From: a virus
Taxonomy: Duplodnaviria > Heunggongvirae > Uroviricota > Caudoviricetes
Strand: one strand, 5' to 3'
IMG/VR virus record: IMGVR_UViG_2547132270_000005
Location: 1 to 21,218 of that record
Length of the DNA: 21,218 nucleotides
In this document: positions 807-15,164 of the stretch, piece after piece
How positions within the stretch are numbered: position 1 is the first letter of the stretch
Layout of the letters: each line of letters starts with the position of its first letter
Notes under the pieces: generated by a model
Told to the model about the DNA's origin: nothing
The model's database searches: none
Seen by the model: the letters and a program-made list of their open reading frames with translations, nothing else
Made by a program: the position numbers and the translations under genes

Positions 807-1232
807 ATGTTTGGTATTTTCAAAAAGAAAACCCGCAAGGCCATTACCGAAGTGAAGAAGATGGAGAACCGCGATGCGGTGGAGGCGACCGTCTGGGGTG
901 CGTATTCCATCGCATACGCTGACGACACCTGTGACGCGAAAGAAATCGCAGTACTGGAGAAAACCATTGCAGCACTTCCTGCCTTTGCGCCGTTCTCCGG
1001 CGAGATTGCACAAATGAGTGCAAATATCCGCGCCCGTTATGAAGCGTCGCCGCGCTCTGCCAATGCTGAAGCCCTTCGTCAGCTGGCTGATGTTGCCGGT
1101 ACTGATGATGCAGTTAATGTACTGTGCCTGTGTCTGGATATCGCTGACCAGGATGGCATTGGTCCGGATGAAGAAGCACAGCTTAAGAAAATTGCTCAGG
1201 CGCTTCAGCTACCGCTGGAGCAGTACCTGTGA
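807..1232 (+). CDS. TerB-like (tellurite-resistance TerB / DjlA N-terminal fold) small protein, 141 aa
   Basis: ORF with RBS AAGGAAAAG 6-8 nt upstream of the ATG. The C-terminal segment LDIADQDGIGPDEEAQLKKIAQALQLPLEQY and the upstream helix pattern resemble the TerB acidic ADG/DEE signature. Family assignment is by eye only. Confidence 0.6.
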   Translation: MFGIFKKKTRKAITEVKKMENRDAVEATVWGAYSIAYADDTCDAKEIAVLEKTIAALPAFAPFSGEIAQMSANIRARYEASPRSANAEALRQLADVAGTDDAVNVLCLCLDIADQDGIGPDEEAQLKKIAQALQLPLEQYL

Positions 1233-3325: not shown

Positions 3326-4114
3326 ATGAGCGAGAAATTGAAGATCGTCTATCGCCCTTTACAAGAACTGTCTCCGTATGCACACAACGCCAGAACACAC
3401 AGCCCTGAGCAGGTGGCACAACTGGTAGAAAGCATTAAGCAATTCGGCTGGACTAATCCGGTGCTGATTGATGAAAAGGGCGAAATTATTGCGGGTCACG
3501 GTCGCGTTATGGCGGCTGAAGTGCTCAAAATGGATTCCATTCCGGTCATCGTTCTGTCTGGTCTGACGGATGATCAGAAAAAGGCGTACCGCCTGGCAGA
3601 TAATCGCCTGCCGATGAATGCTGGCTGGGATGAAGAGCTGTTACGGATGGAGCTGTCGGACCTAATCAATGCTGATTTTGATGTCTCCCTGACAGGCTTC
3701 AGCCCGACAGAAATTGATGAACTGTTGACGGATGTTTTGCCCGGTACAGGAAATGAGGAGGAGCCGTATACGACGAAAATTGATACGCCTGTTTATGAGC
3801 CGTCGGGCGGTAAACCGGATATCAGTGAACTGTACGACGATACGAAAACTCAGAAGTTGATCAGCCGGATACGTTCGGCGTCCCTTGATCCTGATATTGA
3901 GAAATTCCTCCTGTGTGCGGCAGAACGTCACACGGTGTTTAATTTCAGCAGAATTGCGGACTATTACGCTCACGCCCCTGCTGAAATTCAGTGCCTTTTC
4001 GAGGAGTCGGCGCTGGTGATCATTGATTATCAGCAGGCTATTGAAAATGGATTTGTCCGGATGACGCAGCGCATGGTGGAGATCATGCATGGCGGGGAGG
4101 AGGAATATGCGTGA
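3326..4114 (+). CDS. ParB-like (ParB/Srx fold) nuclease-domain protein, 262 aa
   Basis: The N-terminal roughly 100 aa (YRPLQELSPYAHNARTHSPEQVAQLVESIKQFGWTNPVLIDEKGEIIAGHGRVMAA...) fits the ParB N-terminal domain pattern, including the GxGR-type motif. The C-terminal half is unassigned. Confidence 0.7.
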   Translation: MSEKLKIVYRPLQELSPYAHNARTHSPEQVAQLVESIKQFGWTNPVLIDEKGEIIAGHGRVMAAEVLKMDSIPVIVLSGLTDDQKKAYRLADNRLPMNAGWDEELLRMELSDLINADFDVSLTGFSPTEIDELLTDVLPGTGNEEEPYTTKIDTPVYEPSGGKPDISELYDDTKTQKLISRIRSASLDPDIEKFLLCAAERHTVFNFSRIADYYAHAPAEIQCLFEESALVIIDYQQAIENGFVRMTQRMVEIMHGGEEEYA

Positions 4115-5039
4115 TGATTTTTGCGCCTTTATTCTGACTCACGGGCGACCGGACAAAGTTCTGACTTACCGGACGTTGCGTCGTGCTGGCTATACCGGGA
4201 AAATTTTTATCGTTGTTGATGATGAAGATAAGACACGGCATCAGTACATGGCTGAATTTGGTGAACAGGTGCTGGTGTTTTCCAAAGCCGATATCGCCAG
4301 TCGTTTTGACGAAGCCGATAATTTCGGTGACCGGCGCTCAATTTTTTACGCCCGTAATGCCTGTTTCGACCTGGCAAAACTGGTCGGGTGTAAATACTTC
4401 ATTCAGCTCGATGATGATTATCACGAGTTCCAGTTTCGGGTGGATCGCAACTATGACCAGGCCTATTTTCCGATAAGGAAACTGGATGCGATCCTTTCTG
4501 AAATGCTGGCGTATTACGAATCAATACCCGCGCTTTCCATCGCTATGTCGCAGGGCGGGGATTTTCTTGGTGACAATGGCGGCCATGCTTCGTGGGTGAA
4601 ACGCAAGGCAATGAACAGCTTTATCTGTTCGGTTGATCGACCGTTCTCATTCATGGGGCGCATTAACGAGGATGTGAATACGTACACGAATCTCGGTCGC
4701 CGTGGTGAATTGTTTATGACGATCGGTGCTGTCCAGTTAGGGCAGAAACAGACGCAGAAAAACAGCGGCGGAATGACCGAGCTGTATCTGGATTCCGGAA
4801 CCTATGTTAAAAGTTTTTACTCCGTCATGCATGCGCCGTCGTGCGTAAAAATCTCACTGATGGGCGCCAGCCATAAACGCATTCACCATCAGGTCACCTG
4901 GAACAACGCTGCAGTAAAAATCCTTCACGAAAAATACAGGAAGAAGACACCCTGCATATCAATGGGGGTGACAAATGATTCCGTATTCGAAAGTCGAGTC
5001 TCTGGCAGCGTGCCGGATGACTGCACAACAAATCGCTGA
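4107..5039 (+). CDS. Hypothetical enzyme, possibly glycosyltransferase-A-like (acidic motifs IFIVVDDED and IQLDDDYHEF)
   Basis: RBS GGAGGAGG before the ATG at 4107 (track ORF opens at 4089); the ParB-like stop falls inside its first codons. Motif spacing resembles the GT-A/GT2 DxD arrangement. No PP-loop or methyltransferase motifs were seen. Function is inference only. Confidence 0.55.
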   Translation: MRDDFCAFILTHGRPDKVLTYRTLRRAGYTGKIFIVVDDEDKTRHQYMAEFGEQVLVFSKADIASRFDEADNFGDRRSIFYARNACFDLAKLVGCKYFIQLDDDYHEFQFRVDRNYDQAYFPIRKLDAILSEMLAYYESIPALSIAMSQGGDFLGDNGGHASWVKRKAMNSFICSVDRPFSFMGRINEDVNTYTNLGRRGELFMTIGAVQLGQKQTQKNSGGMTELYLDSGTYVKSFYSVMHAPSCVKISLMGASHKRIHHQVTWNNAAVKILHEKYRKKTPCISMGVTNDSVFESRVSGSVPDDCTTNR

Positions 5040-7657: not shown

Positions 7658-9094
7658 ATGGCAGAGATCGAGATTACTGGCGGCCTCGGTTCAGCACTGA
7701 TGCATATTCTTGAGGCTGAAGAAATTCAGCCGGGAACCGACATTGGCTATGAATTGTGTAAGCAGCTGTGGCAATTCCATCCTCTGGGCGGAAAACTTGT
7801 CGAAAAACCCATACTGATGGCGATGTGTAAGCCGCGCCAGTATAACGTGGAAACCGACCCTGACGAACGGGTTGTGCGGCGTTTCCAGGAGGTGTGGGAG
7901 CGCATGAAGGTGAACGAGAAGATTAAAAATCTGTTTTTTCTCTCTCGTTGCTACGGTGCTGCAGCGATCGGCGTGGGCACCGACAGTGTTTCATGTCGTG
8001 AGCCGCTTCCGACATTCGGGCTGACAGAAGAGGATGTGTATATCAACGCGTGGGATCCGTTGAACGCTTCCGGTTCGATGGTGACTGACCAGAACCCAAA
8101 CAGTCCGTTTTTCCAGGAAGCCAATAAAAAGCTAAAGATTGGCGGAAAAGACTGGCATCCGTCACGCACGTTGAAAATTTTCAACGGCACACCGATTTAT
8201 CTGGAGTTTCAGAGTTCATCGTTCGGATTCACCGGGCGAAGCGTGTTTCAGCGAGTTCTTTATTCCCTGAAATCCTATATCAACACGATGGAGGCGAATG
8301 ATCTCGTCAGTCAGAAAGCGGGCGTACTGGTAGCTAAAGTTGTGCAGAACGGTTCGAAACTTGACGGGATCATGGCTGCCGCCACGGGACGAAAAAGGGA
8401 AAATGTCAAAGAGGCAAAAAATAAAGGTGTGCTTAGTATCGGGAAGGATGAGGACGTTACCTCGCTGAATTTACAAAACATCGATGGCGCGCTAAATGCC
8501 GCCCGCGACAACATTATTTCCGATATTGCATCAGGTAGCGATGTTCCCGCGATTCTCATCAAGGAGGAGGCTTTCTCGAATGGTTTCGGTGAAGGAACTG
8601 AGGATTCGAAAGCTATCAGCCAGTATATCGATGGTGTACGCCAGCAGATTGAACCTGTGATGGATTATTTCGAACGCCTGGTGCAGTACATCGCCTGGAA
8701 CGAGGAATTTTATCAGTCGCTGAAAAATGATTACCCGGACATCATAACCGACGACTATAAAACCACGTTTTACCAGTGGCGACGTGAATTTACCGCGACG
8801 TGGCAGGAGCTGGTTGAGGAGTCGCCGGACAAACGCCGGGAAAGCGACAGTAAAGTGATTCAACAGGCGATAGCACTTTTCTCTGCCGTGTCGCCACAGG
8901 TTGATCCTGAAAACCGCGCTGCCGTCACTGAATGGCTGGCAAGTCTTGTTAATGCCACGCAAACCTATGGCGAAGCTCCACTCATCATTGATGTGGACGC
9001 GCTGGCGAATTATGAACCACCGAAGCAGGAGACGCCTGATGGCAATTTCCAGCCGGGCGGTGAGGAAGAAGAAACGGATCAGGACGCTGTATGA
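7658..9094 (+). CDS. Portal protein (putative)
   Basis: About 479 aa, directly downstream of the terminase large subunit, acidic C-terminus. Called from position and size; no motif-level confirmation. Confidence 0.65.
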   Translation: MAEIEITGGLGSALMHILEAEEIQPGTDIGYELCKQLWQFHPLGGKLVEKPILMAMCKPRQYNVETDPDERVVRRFQEVWERMKVNEKIKNLFFLSRCYGAAAIGVGTDSVSCREPLPTFGLTEEDVYINAWDPLNASGSMVTDQNPNSPFFQEANKKLKIGGKDWHPSRTLKIFNGTPIYLEFQSSSFGFTGRSVFQRVLYSLKSYINTMEANDLVSQKAGVLVAKVVQNGSKLDGIMAAATGRKRENVKEAKNKGVLSIGKDEDVTSLNLQNIDGALNAARDNIISDIASGSDVPAILIKEEAFSNGFGEGTEDSKAISQYIDGVRQQIEPVMDYFERLVQYIAWNEEFYQSLKNDYPDIITDDYKTTFYQWRREFTATWQELVEESPDKRRESDSKVIQQAIALFSAVSPQVDPENRAAVTEWLASLVNATQTYGEAPLIIDVDALANYEPPKQETPDGNFQPGGEEEETDQDAV

Positions 9095-9872
9095 GGTTCT
9101 GACGGATGCCGTTAACTACTACGTAAATCGCGGGTGGGATAGCGAAAAATCATTGCTCGAATGGTGCCGGAAACTCCGTGTAGCCGCTCAGCGAGAAACC
9201 CCTGATGATACCGTAGCCAGAAAACACCTCACCGCTATCTACAGCCGTCTTGTCATCGACGGCGGGGCATTACGGGATCAGCCTCCTGACGGCCCAAAAA
9301 AAATCACTGTTGAAAAACTGAAACCTGAGTTTCGCAAGGAACTCGACAGGCGAATTTTCGCCAGTGCCAACCTGATAAAACTCAACCGCGAACAGGCCAT
9401 CGAGAAAACCATACAGCGTTTTCAGGGGTGGGTTACGTCCATTCCGCCTGACGGGGTGAGCGAAATTGATCGCCGGGAAGTGAAGTCCGGTTTTCAGAAG
9501 TCCGTGAAGGATATGGATTTTATCAGTCGCCGGGTGGCAATTGACCAGGGGCATAAGCTGGCAAGCAACGTTAAGTATCTGCTGGCTGTTCAGAGTGGTG
9601 CGATTGCTCTGCGCTGGCATTCGAACTGGCGGCGTCCGGGCTACAAATACCGGCAGGACCACAAAGAGCGCGACGAGAAAATTTATCTCCTCCGCGATTC
9701 GTGGGCGCTGGAGCAGGGACTGATTAAGCCCGTATATGGTTTTTATGACGAAATCACTGCTGCCGGGGAGGAGGTTTATTGCAGTTGCGATGCACTGCCG
9801 ATCTACGCCCCTCAGAAACTACCCGACGAATTTTTAACGGAGAAGGGCAAACGTGAGTTTAACCGAGCTTGA
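9039..9872 (+). CDS. Putative head morphogenesis / minor head protein
   Basis: RBS AGGAG 7 nt before the ATG at 9039 (track ORF opens at 8901, overlapping the portal gene). Position between portal and scaffold matches the usual slot for MuF-like proteins. Family is not confirmed. Confidence 0.5.
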   Translation: MAISSRAVRKKKRIRTLYEVLTDAVNYYVNRGWDSEKSLLEWCRKLRVAAQRETPDDTVARKHLTAIYSRLVIDGGALRDQPPDGPKKITVEKLKPEFRKELDRRIFASANLIKLNREQAIEKTIQRFQGWVTSIPPDGVSEIDRREVKSGFQKSVKDMDFISRRVAIDQGHKLASNVKYLLAVQSGAIALRWHSNWRRPGYKYRQDHKERDEKIYLLRDSWALEQGLIKPVYGFYDEITAAGEEVYCSCDALPIYAPQKLPDEFLTEKGKREFNRA

Positions 9873-11175: not shown

Positions 11176-11785
11176 TATTAACTTTCATCCGTTTAAAAAC
11201 CGTGGAGCATTTGGTGGCCTTTTTAACGTCGAATCCCGTGGGCTGATGCAGGGGGATGCGCAGGATGATCCGGCAATTCGTCTGCAACTTTGCTCCGGTC
11301 GACTGGACAGCAAAATCACTGAACCGGTATGGGGTGGCGTTGGAGTTATGGAGTGCATTGCTCCCGCGAAAGACAGCGTTAACGGCGCGGTAATTAAACA
11401 AGCCACGAAGGACGCCTGTAACGCCTTTACTGTCTTTAATCAGGCATTTCATGGCATTACCACGCCGGATAATCCGGTGCCGTTATATCTCGCGGGTGGC
11501 TTTGTTCACTATTACCGCGTTGGCTCAGGTGCCCGCATTCCTCTCCCTGTCAGTGCAGAAGTTGTTGCGCTGGCTGATGGAAATAACACCGTTGCTGCCA
11601 GTGGTTTTGTGTGGGATCTGACGAAAAACATGGTTGATGTTTATTCGGGATCACCCGGAGCTAATCCGAAAGTGGATATTAAGTTGCTGATGGTTTCAGT
11701 TGACGGAAACCTGACGGTGAAAAAAGAGGATGGCGGTAACGTTGTCTGGGAAATCGGCAAACCGTGCGGCCTGTTTTTAATTTAA
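11168..11785 (+). CDS. Putative capsid-associated structural protein (205 aa)
   Basis: RBS AAGGGAG; located between the scaffold and major capsid genes. No recognisable motif. Confidence 0.5.
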   Translation: MADINFHPFKNRGAFGGLFNVESRGLMQGDAQDDPAIRLQLCSGRLDSKITEPVWGGVGVMECIAPAKDSVNGAVIKQATKDACNAFTVFNQAFHGITTPDNPVPLYLAGGFVHYYRVGSGARIPLPVSAEVVALADGNNTVAASGFVWDLTKNMVDVYSGSPGANPKVDIKLLMVSVDGNLTVKKEDGGNVVWEIGKPCGLFLI

Positions 11786-11799
11786 GGGGATATTAATTA

Positions 11800-12828
11800 A
11801 TGAGCGCATTTACTCCTGCGACTACTATTGTGTCGCCGTCAATGGTGCTGCCGGAAATGATCGTGCAACAGAGCATGGCTTCCGGGGCGTTTGAAGTCCT
11901 GGCTGGTGGTGCTCCGGCAGTAAAAATTAGTTCCAGTGATTTGATGGTCTATCAGAAATATCTGCGCATGACCTCGCAGGCGCAGGTCAGCCAGTCTCTG
12001 CCGGGCCAGTTACCGTCTTCCAGTATCTCTGGCGGCTATGACGGGATGATGACTTACCGAATTTCTTCCCGCTCGCAATACAGCTATCTCGATACTGATG
12101 CAGCAGATCGCTGGGGCTATTCTCTGATTGAAGGCCTGCGCCTGGCTAACCGCCAGGGACACGCTCAAATGTTGCGTAATATGCTGCTGTACGGTGTTGA
12201 AGCGAAGAATAACGAAGGGATCACCAACTCCCCGAATGCAGTGACACTGAATCTGGGCAACGACAGCAAAGGTAACGATTCATACACCACCTGGGATTCC
12301 GGCGAGATGGCTAAATTTATGCTTGGCCTGATTGCTGACCAGAAAACCCGCATGTTGCTGCTGGGGCAGCCATTAACGACTGTTATTCTGAGCCCACAGC
12401 GATTCATGAAGGCGCTGGAGTGGACAGGAATTGTTGAGCTGACCAGTTACCAGCGTCCTGGTGGTGGTACCGGAACGGTGGGAACGATGGTTAAAGACGT
12501 CGCCGATAAGGCGGCAGGCGACGACATCATTTTCTGCCAGGACGACACGCTGATCGGTAAAGGCGCTGGTGGTAATGACCTGATCATCGTTACGAACCCG
12601 ACGATTGAGGTTCCGGAAGCGCGTCACACCATTAACACCAATATTTTCTCCACGCTGGTACCGAACCAGCAGGCCGTCAACGTGATGTTCTGCGACATGG
12701 CAGCGCCGACGGAAATTCCGTCCCCTATGCCGGATGGCGGCCTGACCACGTTGTATACCATGCGTGCGACGCCGGGCTGGAACTTCCGCCCTGAGGGGAT
12801 CACCCTGTTGTCTGCCAAATACGCATAA
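11800..12828 (+). CDS. Major capsid protein (putative)
   Basis: RBS AAGGGGA; 342 aa; last gene of the head block and followed by a strong terminator, consistent with a highly expressed capsid gene. Called from position and size. Confidence 0.65.
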   Translation: MSAFTPATTIVSPSMVLPEMIVQQSMASGAFEVLAGGAPAVKISSSDLMVYQKYLRMTSQAQVSQSLPGQLPSSSISGGYDGMMTYRISSRSQYSYLDTDAADRWGYSLIEGLRLANRQGHAQMLRNMLLYGVEAKNNEGITNSPNAVTLNLGNDSKGNDSYTTWDSGEMAKFMLGLIADQKTRMLLLGQPLTTVILSPQRFMKALEWTGIVELTSYQRPGGGTGTVGTMVKDVADKAAGDDIIFCQDDTLIGKGAGGNDLIIVTNPTIEVPEARHTINTNIFSTLVPNQQAVNVMFCDMAAPTEIPSPMPDGGLTTLYTMRATPGWNFRPEGITLLSAKYA

Positions 12829-12845
12829 ACGTTCAACCTGATAAC

Positions 12846-12872
12846 GCGGGGAGCTAAATGCTCCCCTTTTTT
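12846..12872 (+). terminator. Rho-independent terminator (GGGGAGC-taaat-GCTCCCC plus TTTTTT)
   Basis: Seen directly: 7-bp perfect stem at 12848-12854/12860-12866, then a T6 run. Confidence 0.75.
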
Positions 12873-12885
12873 GTGGGAAAAATTT

Positions 12886-13356
12886 ATGAAGCTCTACATT
12901 GCTAACTGCTCACGTCAGCCGCACACGTTCAACTACAAACTCCCCGAAAAAACGCAGTCGTTCGGTGTGACAATTCCGTCCGGACGTCAGCATATGATCG
13001 AAAATCAGTCCGATATTATCGACCACATCATCCGACAGCATGAGCCTTACGGATTCCAGCGTTGTGACAAGGTGGACAAGAATTTTTCCGGTATCTGCTA
13101 TTCCATCGATAAACCTGTGAGCGTCGGTCGCATTGAGGATTGCGCGGAGCAGAAAACGGAAAATCTGGAATCCATGTCAGAGGAAATTCTCGCGGCCAGC
13201 GCCGTATCGCTGAATAACGCAGTGGATCAGGCGGTGATTCAGAGCGGCGAAAAACCTCAACCGGGCGGTATTGAGATGGAAATCACCGGAGAAGCGGTTA
13301 ACACCGAACAGGAAAATCCGCCCAGCACAAAGCGAAATATTAAGGTTAAAAAATAA
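12886..13356 (+). CDS. Hypothetical protein (156 aa) with an acidic, low-complexity C-terminal tail
   Basis: ATG at 12886 (track ORF opens at a TTG at 12871, inside the terminator T-run). Weak RBS. No family recognised. The stop overlaps the next gene start (TAATG). Confidence 0.5.
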   Translation: MKLYIANCSRQPHTFNYKLPEKTQSFGVTIPSGRQHMIENQSDIIDHIIRQHEPYGFQRCDKVDKNFSGICYSIDKPVSVGRIEDCAEQKTENLESMSEEILAASAVSLNNAVDQAVIQSGEKPQPGGIEMEITGEAVNTEQENPPSTKRNIKVKK

Positions 13357-13796
13357 TGACCCAGCGTCCGTCACTGGAGGGGTTTATTCGCTTCGTTCGT
13401 GATGACATGAAAGTACCGGTTCACGCCATTGCTGACGATGATCCGACGCTGGAATGTTGCTTTCAGTCTGCGATGGAGCTAATCCCTCACGATCAGGGGC
13501 TGGAGCGTTTACCCATCATCTATGTGCGAACGGTTTATAACGCTGCCGCCTCATTCCTCCTGAATTTCGCCCCAGGATCGTGGTTTGCCGACCTGAGAAA
13601 AAAACTCAACCTTGGGAAGCTGGCTACCGGGCTTGTCAGCGCGGCAGCAGACCAGGGAACATCGGGCTCAATCACTATCAGCGACGCGCTGAGCAATCTG
13701 TCTTTGCTTGATTTGCAGATGTTGCAGGATCCGTATGGACGGCAGGTTGTTGCGGTGCTGATGCAGATGGGAACGGTATGGGGGTACACGCCATGA
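13356..13796 (+). CDS. Putative head-tail connector / head completion protein (146 aa)
   Basis: Translationally coupled to flanking genes; position between the capsid and tail modules. Confidence 0.45.
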   Translation: MTQRPSLEGFIRFVRDDMKVPVHAIADDDPTLECCFQSAMELIPHDQGLERLPIIYVRTVYNAAASFLLNFAPGSWFADLRKKLNLGKLATGLVSAAADQGTSGSITISDALSNLSLLDLQMLQDPYGRQVVAVLMQMGTVWGYTP

Positions 13797-14233
13797 AACT
13801 TTGTTTTGGTGTTGTCGACCAGCCGTATGACTACGGAGACGAACCGGGAAAAACCACGTTCGACGTGGCCTGTGACCTCGAGGAGCGCTACGAAATTTTT
13901 ACGCACTTCTGGGAAATGCATAAGGACGAGATTATCCAGGAGGCAGGTACTGAACTGGCGTACCAGTTGGTCAATCACCTTAAGCATAAGGCTCCGCTAC
14001 CAGGCGAGCATTTTCTGGAAGGGACTGAGAAGATTTTCCATATTTTTCTTGAAACTGAAGAAATGGCCGGGATGACGATTAACGGAAACCCTGTGCCAAC
14101 TCAGGCCGCGCTACTGGGCGTTAACTCCAGGCTTAAGGACAAATATACCGGTGAGCGGCGTCCGTCATTCATAGACGGCGGCCTGTTTAAGGGCAGCTTT
14201 ATAGCGTGGATAGATAACAATGCCGAGTCTTGA
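13793..14233 (+). CDS. Putative head-tail joining or tail completion protein (about 146 aa)
   Basis: ATG at 13793 overlaps the upstream stop (ATGA); an alternative ATG lies at 13778. Assigned by position only. Confidence 0.45.
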   Translation: MKLCFGVVDQPYDYGDEPGKTTFDVACDLEERYEIFTHFWEMHKDEIIQEAGTELAYQLVNHLKHKAPLPGEHFLEGTEKIFHIFLETEEMAGMTINGNPVPTQAALLGVNSRLKDKYTGERRPSFIDGGLFKGSFIAWIDNNAES

Positions 14234-15164
14234 GGAATTAGCCGAACAGCACAGTTCGCAGCTCTCATCCGTTCTTAAATCCGCAGTTGAAACCATCTCG
14301 TCAGACCAGGAAATCACGTTCAGGCTCTATGTCCGGCAGGTTCTGCCGCTGGATGGCTTTGTCTATTGGGTTAATGCGGAAATCATCAGTTGCGATGAAC
14401 TGTGTCGCCTGAATATTGAGTCACCAACCAGTCTGAAAATCAAAGGCAGCCTGCATCGTCAGGTTATTGCGATTCAGGACGAGTCTGTCTCGAAGGATGT
14501 GAACAACATTATTTTCACGCCTGTCCAGCAGGTTGATGATTTTAATGTAGAAAATCCCGATGCGATCTATCTCGGTGAGTACGGCGGCGTTCAGTTCGCT
14601 TTTTCACGAATGGAGAGCCGTTATCAGCAGTCGGGTATTTTTCATTATCGCGGCATGGCGATTTTACCAACTATGCGTTCTCAGATTATCGACTGCGAGG
14701 AGGATATCAGCGACGAGCAGATCATCTCCAACAGCATTCCGATCTGGCTGCAAATGAAAGATGCCGCGACCGTGTATCCGTCTTACCTGGTACCTCAGAA
14801 CCTTCGTCCTCCGTATATCGCGGTGGATGTTCGCAACAGCATTCCGTTGCAGGTGGCTCCCGTTGTTTTCGGTGGCGAGCGATTCCAGCTCGTCCAGGAT
14901 TCGGTTCGCCTGACGCTTTACGGATTCAGCAACAAAATGGCGCTGGATCTTGTCGACTCGGTGGTGAACAGGGCGCTGGAGGAGGAAAGGTTTGGTGTAA
15001 CTAATATTCCGGTGGTTCAGGACGCAAAGTCGGGACAGGTTGAAATCAACGCTCTGGCGAAGAAAAAAATTGTCGATTTTGACGTGAATTACTACCAGAG
15101 CACCGCCCGGGAAATATCCCGGCAGTTGATTGAAAAAGTTATTTGTAAATATGAGGTTAAATAA
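14220..15164 (+). CDS. Hypothetical virion morphogenesis protein (314 aa)
   Basis: Overlaps the upstream gene by 14 nt; stop overlaps the sheath gene start (TAATG). No recognisable motif. Confidence 0.5.
   Translation: MPSLEELAEQHSSQLSSVLKSAVETISSDQEITFRLYVRQVLPLDGFVYWVNAEIISCDELCRLNIESPTSLKIKGSLHRQVIAIQDESVSKDVNNIIFTPVQQVDDFNVENPDAIYLGEYGGVQFAFSRMESRYQQSGIFHYRGMAILPTMRSQIIDCEEDISDEQIISNSIPIWLQMKDAATVYPSYLVPQNLRPPYIAVDVRNSIPLQVAPVVFGGERFQLVQDSVRLTLYGFSNKMALDLVDSVVNRALEEERFGVTNIPVVQDAKSGQVEINALAKKKIVDFDVNYYQSTAREISRQLIEKVICKYEVK

Follow-up and report, generated by a model that had tools for sequence, protein, structure and literature searches.

A conserved gene of unassigned function between the capsid and neck genes of Felixviridae-type phages

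Results

Genomic context of the 156-aa gene

The window analyzed here, that is, the whole stretch of 21,218 nucleotides (IMG/VR record IMGVR_UViG_2547132270_000005, positions 1 to 21,218), carries a 156-aa open reading frame that lies directly downstream of the major capsid protein gene and upstream of a 146-aa gene presumed to encode the head-to-tail adaptor (Table 1). In the program-made list of open reading frames the start of the 156-aa gene had been placed at TTG 12871, but residues M1 and K2 of the protein are invariant among 34 aligned homologs and the ATG codon is therefore taken to be the real start.

Table 1. Coordinates of the features discussed in the text, numbered along the window.
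Feature	Position	Strand	Description
ParB_N-domain protein gene	3326-4114	+	262 aa; E 1.9e-6; overlaps the TAGT gene
TET-associated glycosyltransferase (TAGT) gene	4089-5039	+	PF20691, E 6e-36
Major capsid protein gene	11800-12828	+	342 aa; directly upstream of the 156-aa gene; phrog_6671, E 9e-184; phrog_264 'major head protein', E 7e-9
Intrinsic terminator-like hairpin and T-run	12848-12872	+	between the capsid gene and the 156-aa gene; 7-bp stem with 6 G-C pairs, 5-nt loop
Weak Shine-Dalgarno sequence	12875-12878	+	GGGA, 7 nt 5' of the ATG; best anti-Shine-Dalgarno duplex -4.2 kcal/mol
156-aa gene	12886-13356	+	phrog_6737 member; ATG at 12886, stop codon TAA at 13354-13356
N-terminal alpha/beta domain, residues 1-86	12886-13143	+	four strands, helix, strand, helix (predicted); AlphaFold2 pLDDT 81-92
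Predicted helix, residues 94-119	13165-13242	+	low confidence, AlphaFold2 pLDDT 55-70
Acidic segment, residues 120-146	13243-13323	+	conserved strand motif IEMEITGE and polar loop
Basic C-terminal tip, residues 147-156	13324-13353	+	STKRNIKVKK
TAATG stop/start overlap	13354-13358	+	stop of the 156-aa gene with the start of the next gene
Downstream gene	13356-13796	+	146 aa; phrog_6356; presumed head-to-tail adaptor

Judged by its sequence, the window comes from an E. coli prophage of the Rac-SA53-like (Felixviridae-type) kind. Its capsid-to-neck segment (11800-14233) is 96% identical to that of Escherichia phage Rac-SA53 (KU052037), and gene order runs parallel over the rest of the window. The stretch composed of the capsid gene, the 156-aa gene and the gene that follows was located in 85 of 5,426 complete E. 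coli genomes, where it is always chromosomal and always annotated as hypothetical, and homologs of the 156-aa gene occupy the same position in phages RothD, Chronis and PdC23, in the Yersinia vB_YenM phages and in Shewanella phage vB_Sb_QDWS. This lineage has recently been proposed as the Felixviridae, with a conserved structural core of approximately 20 kb in which two proteins, gp9 and gp15, have neither a functional annotation nor a Foldseek match (PMC12629751). The homolog of the 156-aa gene is the ninth coding sequence of Klebsiella phage RothD (PP934564), and it probably corresponds to the gp9 core protein of that study. The 'gp7' detection primers reported in the same work (PMC12629751) amplify the sixth GenBank coding sequence of RothD (L006, 4821-6408), a DUF2213-like 529-aa gene, and not the seventh, so that the published gene numbers may be offset from the deposited record.

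Two deposited phage records came up in these comparisons with host assignments that look doubtful. The record PP818812.1, 'Actinobacillus phage vB_Apl-pPE4', is 97% identical to the E. coli prophage module of the window, and OP650936.1, 'Hujiaoplasma phage zrk29-1', equals Shewanella phage vB_Sb_QDWS in length (47,902 bp) and in match statistics. Within the window, the listed start of the 323-aa gene that follows the portal gene (8901-9872, plus strand) is a TTG codon located 194 nt inside the portal gene and preceded by almost no Shine-Dalgarno sequence; since Rac-SA53 annotates an 813-nt gene at this place, the real start is probably further downstream. A 141-aa open reading frame upstream of the holin gene (807-1232, plus strand) presents a partial match to the TerB (tellurite resistance) domain (E 1.4e-6).

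The prophage has an exchangeable cargo slot between the lysis genes and terS, and the ParB_N-domain and TAGT genes of the window (3326-5039) look like its local content. The same slot harbors the LT-IIa enterotoxin genes in Rac-SA53, and in the window its predicted products may provide a DNA-modification function.

The 156-aa gene had been described in the first-pass annotation as an orphan, which proved to be wrong. Its product is a full-length match to the phrog_6737 HMM (E 4.6e-79, with residues 1-156 on profile positions 1-159 of 163), a PHROGs v4 family without assigned function that is also matched by all 70 of 70 diverse relatives. Homologs number 89, at 42-98% identity, and come from the Enterobacterales and a few other groups, while a profile search covering 1.84 billion cluster representatives yielded 1,022 matches at E <= 1e-3 and 706 at E <= 1e-10, nearly all of them 150-190 aa long. 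The counterpart in Rac-SA53, 'rac46', is 98.7% identical and annotated as hypothetical. Both the sequence and the family are already in public databases, and the family has already been flagged as a core gene of unassigned function.

Synteny of the head-neck module

The conservation of gene order was assessed on 135 loci encoding a family member, drawn from annotated phages, GTDB genomes and IMG/VR contigs, the last of which were gathered with a degenerate DNA pattern for the motif FxG[LIMV]CYS..[KR]P. Neighboring genes were labeled with iterated HMMs built from the proteins of the window, and clustering of the family members at 70% identity produced 38 clusters, with identities to the window copy down to approximately 22%. 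The capsid gene is the nearest labeled upstream gene in 103 of 104 assessable loci (31 of 31 clusters) and the homolog of the 146-aa gene is the nearest labeled downstream gene in 117 of 122 (33 of 35 clusters). In each of the four deposited-phage lineages that were inspected, the 156-aa gene comes directly after the capsid gene, and the two genes are carried by the same 14 deposited phage records. Searches by tblastn with three distant family members returned only these 14 records (12 for one query), which indicates that no better-studied phage carries the gene. We conclude that the 156-aa gene belongs to the morphogenesis core of the head-neck module found in Felixviridae-type phages (Rac-SA53, RothD, Chronis and PdC23) and that, although real, it is an ordinary conserved hypothetical gene of this structural module.

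The labels of capsid gene and connector gene that the flanking genes had received initially are reasonable, even if the support for them is weak or indirect. Besides the PHROG matches listed in Table 1, the capsid assignment draws on a match to the Pfam Major_capside family that falls below the Pfam cut-off and on the homolog of Pantoea phage PdC23 (42% identity), for which the deposited annotation is major capsid protein. For the 146-aa gene there is no assigned function in PHROGs or Pfam and no match to the sequences of solved structures; its single-sequence model is all-helical at low confidence (pLDDT 48), and in the homologous core of RothD, a published annotation based on structures names a head-to-tail connector as one of the gene products (PMC12629751). 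Comparison of PDB sequences with the 146-, 151- and 314-aa neighbors and with the capsid protein, in both single-sequence and profile form, gave nothing, and PHROG scans with distant members of the neighbor-gene families returned only families without assigned function. Since the neck genes likewise have no matches at the sequence level, the lack of sequence matches for the 156-aa protein is weak evidence against a virion role.

The interval between the capsid gene and the 156-aa gene was observed to be an insertion hot spot in several loci (L002, which is PdC23, L021, L078, L113 and L062). In PdC23 it holds a separate 80-aa gene, annotated as Dec by the depositors, between the capsid gene and the homolog of the 156-aa gene; L021 and L078 carry related open reading frames of 70-77 aa, L113 a 66-aa open reading frame and L062 an 87-aa open reading frame that, by reading of its sequence, is of the LuxR/GerE helix-turn-helix type. 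In Budvicia aquatica (L011, NZ_ATYS01000057) the family is represented by a second, tandem copy of 155 aa, starting with MKLYIANCTHQSHFFNYRLPE, that comes after the capsid gene and before the regular copy, within a gap of 575 nt on the upstream side of position 8001; it constitutes the sole duplication seen.

Expression signals around the 156-aa gene

The presence of a terminator after the capsid gene, a weak ribosome-binding site and a TAATG coupling to the next gene had all been pointed out in the first-pass annotation, and all three are borne out. The hairpin proper (12848-12866) starts 20 nt past the capsid stop codon and reads GGGGAGC-TAAAT-GCTCCCC followed by TTTTTT, and the 58-nt spacer between the two genes folds at -18.4 kcal/mol (z = -3.1 versus shuffles). 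The hairpin is kept in close relatives. Across the wider collection, a terminator-like site is found in the gap between the capsid gene and the 156-aa gene in 62 of 124 loci, compared with 38 of 620 random windows; it is present in 13 of 31 clusters and absent in 18, and in one cluster the homolog of the 156-aa gene overlaps the capsid stop codon. The terminator is, hence, not a fixed feature of this gap. Among close relatives (the window, L114 and L116) the hairpin loop occurs in both orientations, with either TAAAT or ATTTA between GGGGAGC and GCTCCCC, and it looks as if this palindromic element had been inverted.

The Shine-Dalgarno duplex of the 156-aa gene is about half as stable as that of the capsid gene (-8.3 kcal/mol, the strongest of the operon), but it is not weaker than those of the next three (neck) genes (-3.9, -5.0 and -3.1 kcal/mol). 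The weakness of the site is thus a feature of the class and no peculiarity of this gene. The capsid gene, the 205-aa gene that precedes it (a putative cement protein gene, -7.6 kcal/mol) and the sheath and tube genes span -6.2 to -8.3 kcal/mol. The stop codon overlaps or abuts the start of the downstream homolog in 85 of 117 loci, and overlaps of this kind are the rule throughout the operon. No promoter-like site was found in the interval 11500-14500. These expression signals place the 156-aa gene with the presumably low-copy neck genes, and because of the weak Shine-Dalgarno sequence and the position after the terminator, which are an indirect proxy, its product is probably a low-copy protein and not one that coats the shell.

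Protein organization and selective constraint

The N-terminal domain is the most conserved part of the protein, with 17 of the 20 invariant and 8 of the 19 nearly invariant columns of the family alignment (A1). It is followed by a predicted helix, with conserved residues at and near it (Q89, E92, N93, L94, S98, L102 and A106), an acidic segment and a basic tip, and this layout of folded N-terminal domain, helix, acidic stretch and basic tip is family-wide. Among 140 family representatives the N-terminal domain is neutral, and mean charges are -5 in the middle region and +4 over the last 20 residues; at least four K/R residues are present within the last 12 residues in 124 of the 140, and a GRP motif within the last 25 residues in 24 of them.

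The last 60 residues had been depicted as an acidic, disordered tail rich in Glu, Gln and Asn. They are indeed mildly acidic (net charge -3), but the enrichment is overstated, with E, Q and N amounting to 28% of these residues against 23% of the whole protein, and the end is basic (KRNIKVKK). Plain disorder is likewise an overstatement, for AlphaFold2 predicts a helix and two short strands in the C-terminal half, albeit at low confidence (pLDDT 48-70), and not plain coil. In close relatives, dN/dS is 0.03 for codons 1-90, 0.09 for codons 91-156 and 0.14 for codons 120-156; the tail is therefore constrained, and the gene as a whole is under strong purifying selection. The possibility that C8, H13, H52 and C71 make up a metal site was weighed and dismissed: in the 70-sequence alignment only H52 keeps a conservation of 90% or more, and the other three residues are replaced in distant family members.

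Fold and family searches

The profile search and structure prediction advocated in the first-pass annotation produced a confident model of the N-terminal domain, but no recognized fold or family of known role. The protein has no family match in Pfam, NCBIfam or the PADLOC collection of defense systems. A Foldseek search of the model against the PDB, with entries up to April 2026 that include many phage virion structures, yielded nothing at E <= 1e-3, and in BFVD it returned one uncharacterized relative (E 5e-6) and nothing annotated. Sequence-profile searches of the PDB with the 34- and 70-sequence alignments gave only non-significant matches, such as an EAL enzyme (E 0.57) and the P68 lower collar protein (E 0.28), and no similarity to Pam3 gp8, gp9, gp10, gp11 or gp12 was detected with hhalign.

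With regard to particular classes, neither fold nor profile similarity to solved adaptors and stoppers was found in the PDB searches or in the comparisons with Pam3 gp9, gp11 and gp12; no gpD-type beta-tulip, Dec OB-fold, Soc or Hoc-type Ig domain was among the PDB and BFVD fold matches returned, and the fold of the C-terminal domain of lambda gpFI (PDB 2LSM) was not matched. Since no solved or predicted viral structure and no Pfam family is matched, the 156-aa protein does not appear to be a canonical adaptor, stopper or decoration protein, nor a gpFI homolog. This negative fold evidence is stronger than the negative sequence evidence, but it comes from a monomer model.

Co-variation with head and neck proteins

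Co-variation was measured as the Spearman correlation of pairwise-identity matrices (the mirror-tree approach), with a bootstrap on the differences. The C-terminal region of the 156-aa protein tracks the capsid protein (rho 0.73-0.80) and the portal (0.67-0.69) more closely than the adjacent neck genes (0.53-0.62), and TerL presents the lowest value (0.36). For this region, the difference between the capsid protein and the 146-aa protein is 0.18, with a bootstrap 95% interval of 0.09-0.28. The N-terminal domain, on the other hand, co-varies about equally with head and neck proteins (rho 0.46-0.56) and slightly less with TerL (0.41). These results suggest that the C-terminal half has a partner in the head, in so far as mirror-tree correlations, which are confounded by shared history and by the unequal rates of the two halves, can be read in this way.

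Discussion

The comparison with better-studied systems reveals analogs of position and build for the 156-aa protein. The gene order E, FI, FII of phage lambda parallels that of the capsid gene, the 156-aa gene and the 146-aa gene in the window, so that FI fills the same slot between a capsid gene and a head-tail joining gene. Both proteins are small (132 aa for gpFI) and both consist of two modules joined by an acidic, flexible stretch. The gpFI protein is described as a chaperone of packaging that forms a bridge from the capsid to the terminase-DNA complex (PMC13595911), and the co-variation of the C-terminal region of the 156-aa protein with the capsid protein is reminiscent of the capsid side of this bridge. 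The resemblance ends there, however: gpFI shows no similarity to the 70-sequence profile (hhalign probability 0.15%, E 0.38), its N-terminus is, by reading of the sequence, a helix-extended-helix element and not an alpha/beta domain, the basic C-terminal tip is a trait of the 156-aa protein, and gpFI acts with the terminase-DNA complex whereas the 156-aa protein lacks co-variation with the terminase. By analogy, therefore, the 156-aa protein resembles gpFI in position and modular build, but is not homologous to it.

A second analog is the hypothetical protein gp8 of cyanophage Pam3, a myophage with a similarly ordered minimal module, which occupies the same slot between the capsid gene (gp7) and the adaptor gene (gp9) and the stop codon of which overlaps the adaptor start. 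By reading of its sequence, gp8 begins with a small N-terminal domain, continues with a linker that is acidic or of Gly-Ser type and finishes in a C-terminal motif, much like the 156-aa protein, yet homology is not detectable (hhalign E 0.65), gp8 is shorter (119 aa) and its C-terminus seems to be helix-extended-helix-like instead of a basic tip. The text of the publication that describes the Pam3 virion structure makes no mention of gp8, and the portal is the only component of the Pam3 and window modules that can be aligned at the sequence level. The adaptors and stoppers themselves (HK97 gp6, SPP1 gp15 and gp16, Pam3 gp9 and gp11) lie in the same run of genes from capsid to sheath and in the same low-expression class as the 156-aa gene, but they share neither fold nor profile similarity with it. 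The adaptor class represented by HK97 gp6 and SPP1 gp15 is mainly helical, in contrast to the alpha/beta N-terminal domain of the 156-aa protein.

On the basis of its expression class, its co-variation and the analogies of position and build, we lean toward regarding the 156-aa protein as a low-copy head-completion or packaging accessory protein that acts when packaging ends and the head closes; low copy number, binding to the head and action at the packaging or head-completion step are all properties that we infer. According to this proposal, the protein would be made at a low level together with the neck genes, its N-terminal alpha/beta domain would supply the core activity or mediate oligomerization, and its flexible C-terminal half, with the helix, the acidic strand motif and the basic tip, would dock on the capsid shell or on the portal vertex and might contact DNA. 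The packaging part of the proposal has the co-variation results against it, as they contain no pointer to the terminase (rho 0.36-0.41). Our literature search found no virion proteomics for any phage of this lineage.

The main rival to an accessory role, which we consider somewhat unlikely, holds that the 156-aa protein is a stoichiometric part of the virion, present in low copy at the portal vertex or in the neck, such as a collar, a plug or a DNA-end-binding head-completion protein, with a fold so far without example among solved phage structures. It would account well for the fixed place of the gene beside the neck genes, the frequent stop/start overlap with the first of them and the expression class that it shares with them; the co-variation of the C-terminal region with the portal agrees with it, the basic tip could touch DNA in the portal channel, and the lower collar protein of a phage (6iac_B) appeared in the profile search, with a non-significant E of 0.28 that carries no weight alone. 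It is harder to reconcile with the failure to match any adaptor, stopper, terminator or collar protein in the PDB up to April 2026, with the annotation of the RothD core, in which the neck parts are given to other genes (PMC12629751), and with the absence of the positional analog gp8 from the text describing the solved Pam3 virion. The first-pass annotation had proposed a decoration or head-completion protein, and the two halves of this suggestion fare differently. A low-copy head-completion or packaging protein is, by inference, consistent with all observations, while a decoration or cement protein in high copy on the shell seems to us very improbable. Adjacency to the capsid gene and the capsid protein as the strongest co-variation partner of the C-terminal region would fit the latter, but the weak, neck-like Shine-Dalgarno sequence and the place after the terminator set the 156-aa gene apart from the capsid gene and the preceding 205-aa gene, and no beta-tulip, OB, Ig-like or other decoration fold appears among the fold matches. 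Moreover, PdC23 has a separate Dec-annotated gene, so that Dec and the 156-aa protein are not equivalent, and the slot directly 5' of the capsid gene, which encodes the cement protein gp6 in Pam3, is here taken by the 205-aa gene.

We are just as skeptical of an internal head protein that would be packaged with the DNA, hold it through the basic tail and possibly be ejected into the host. The acidic-then-basic tail, the co-variation with head proteins and the AT-hook-like GRP motifs of some distant members, for which matches to Pfam AT_hook are weak (2 of 70 members, E 0.033), speak for such a role, but the copy in the window has a short basic tip only. Genes for internal and ejection proteins usually lie beside portal, scaffold or tail-tip genes and not between capsid and adaptor, a habit that the 156-aa gene does not follow. 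The idea of a cargo (moron) gene, for instance an anti-defense factor riding on read-through of the capsid terminator, had been raised at the outset. In its favor are the small size of the gene, its lack of annotated function, the terminator upstream and the insertions seen in the gap of some lineages. It is effectively refuted by synteny. The gene is universal and its position is fixed (31 of 31 clusters upstream and 33 of 35 downstream) in lineages down to approximately 22% identity, and the terminator is not, being missing in 18 of the 31 clusters, which rules out a cargo gene that depends on read-through. The gene is also under strong purifying selection, not diversification, and has neither a nearby promoter-like site nor a PADLOC match; the terminator lies only upstream and the stop codon overlaps the next gene, so there is no flanking pair of promoter and terminator; the variable genes of the gap are other open reading frames (Dec-annotated, LuxR-type and small ones), and the real cargo slot of the prophage is located between the lysis genes and terS.

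A more far-reaching version of the accessory role, which we rate as decidedly speculative, is that the phrog_6737 proteins are the founding members of a new fold family, chaperones of head assembly that tether the capsid shell or the portal vertex to the DNA end while DNA is packaged or the head closes, and that they do so in Felixviridae-type myophages as gpFI does in lambda. If this were true, a general, non-homologous class of bridging factors encoded after the capsid gene would emerge, with lambda FI and Pam3 gp8 among its members. If the low-copy head-completion or packaging accessory role that we favor is correct, that step of head maturation would be carried out by a protein of unrecognized fold. 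For annotation purposes, we advise that the label of the 156-aa open reading frame be conserved head-module protein, not cargo. The prophage lineage is common in gut Enterobacteriaceae and can carry toxin genes such as LT-II, and naming the function of the 156-aa protein would fill one of the last annotation gaps in the core of its structural module.
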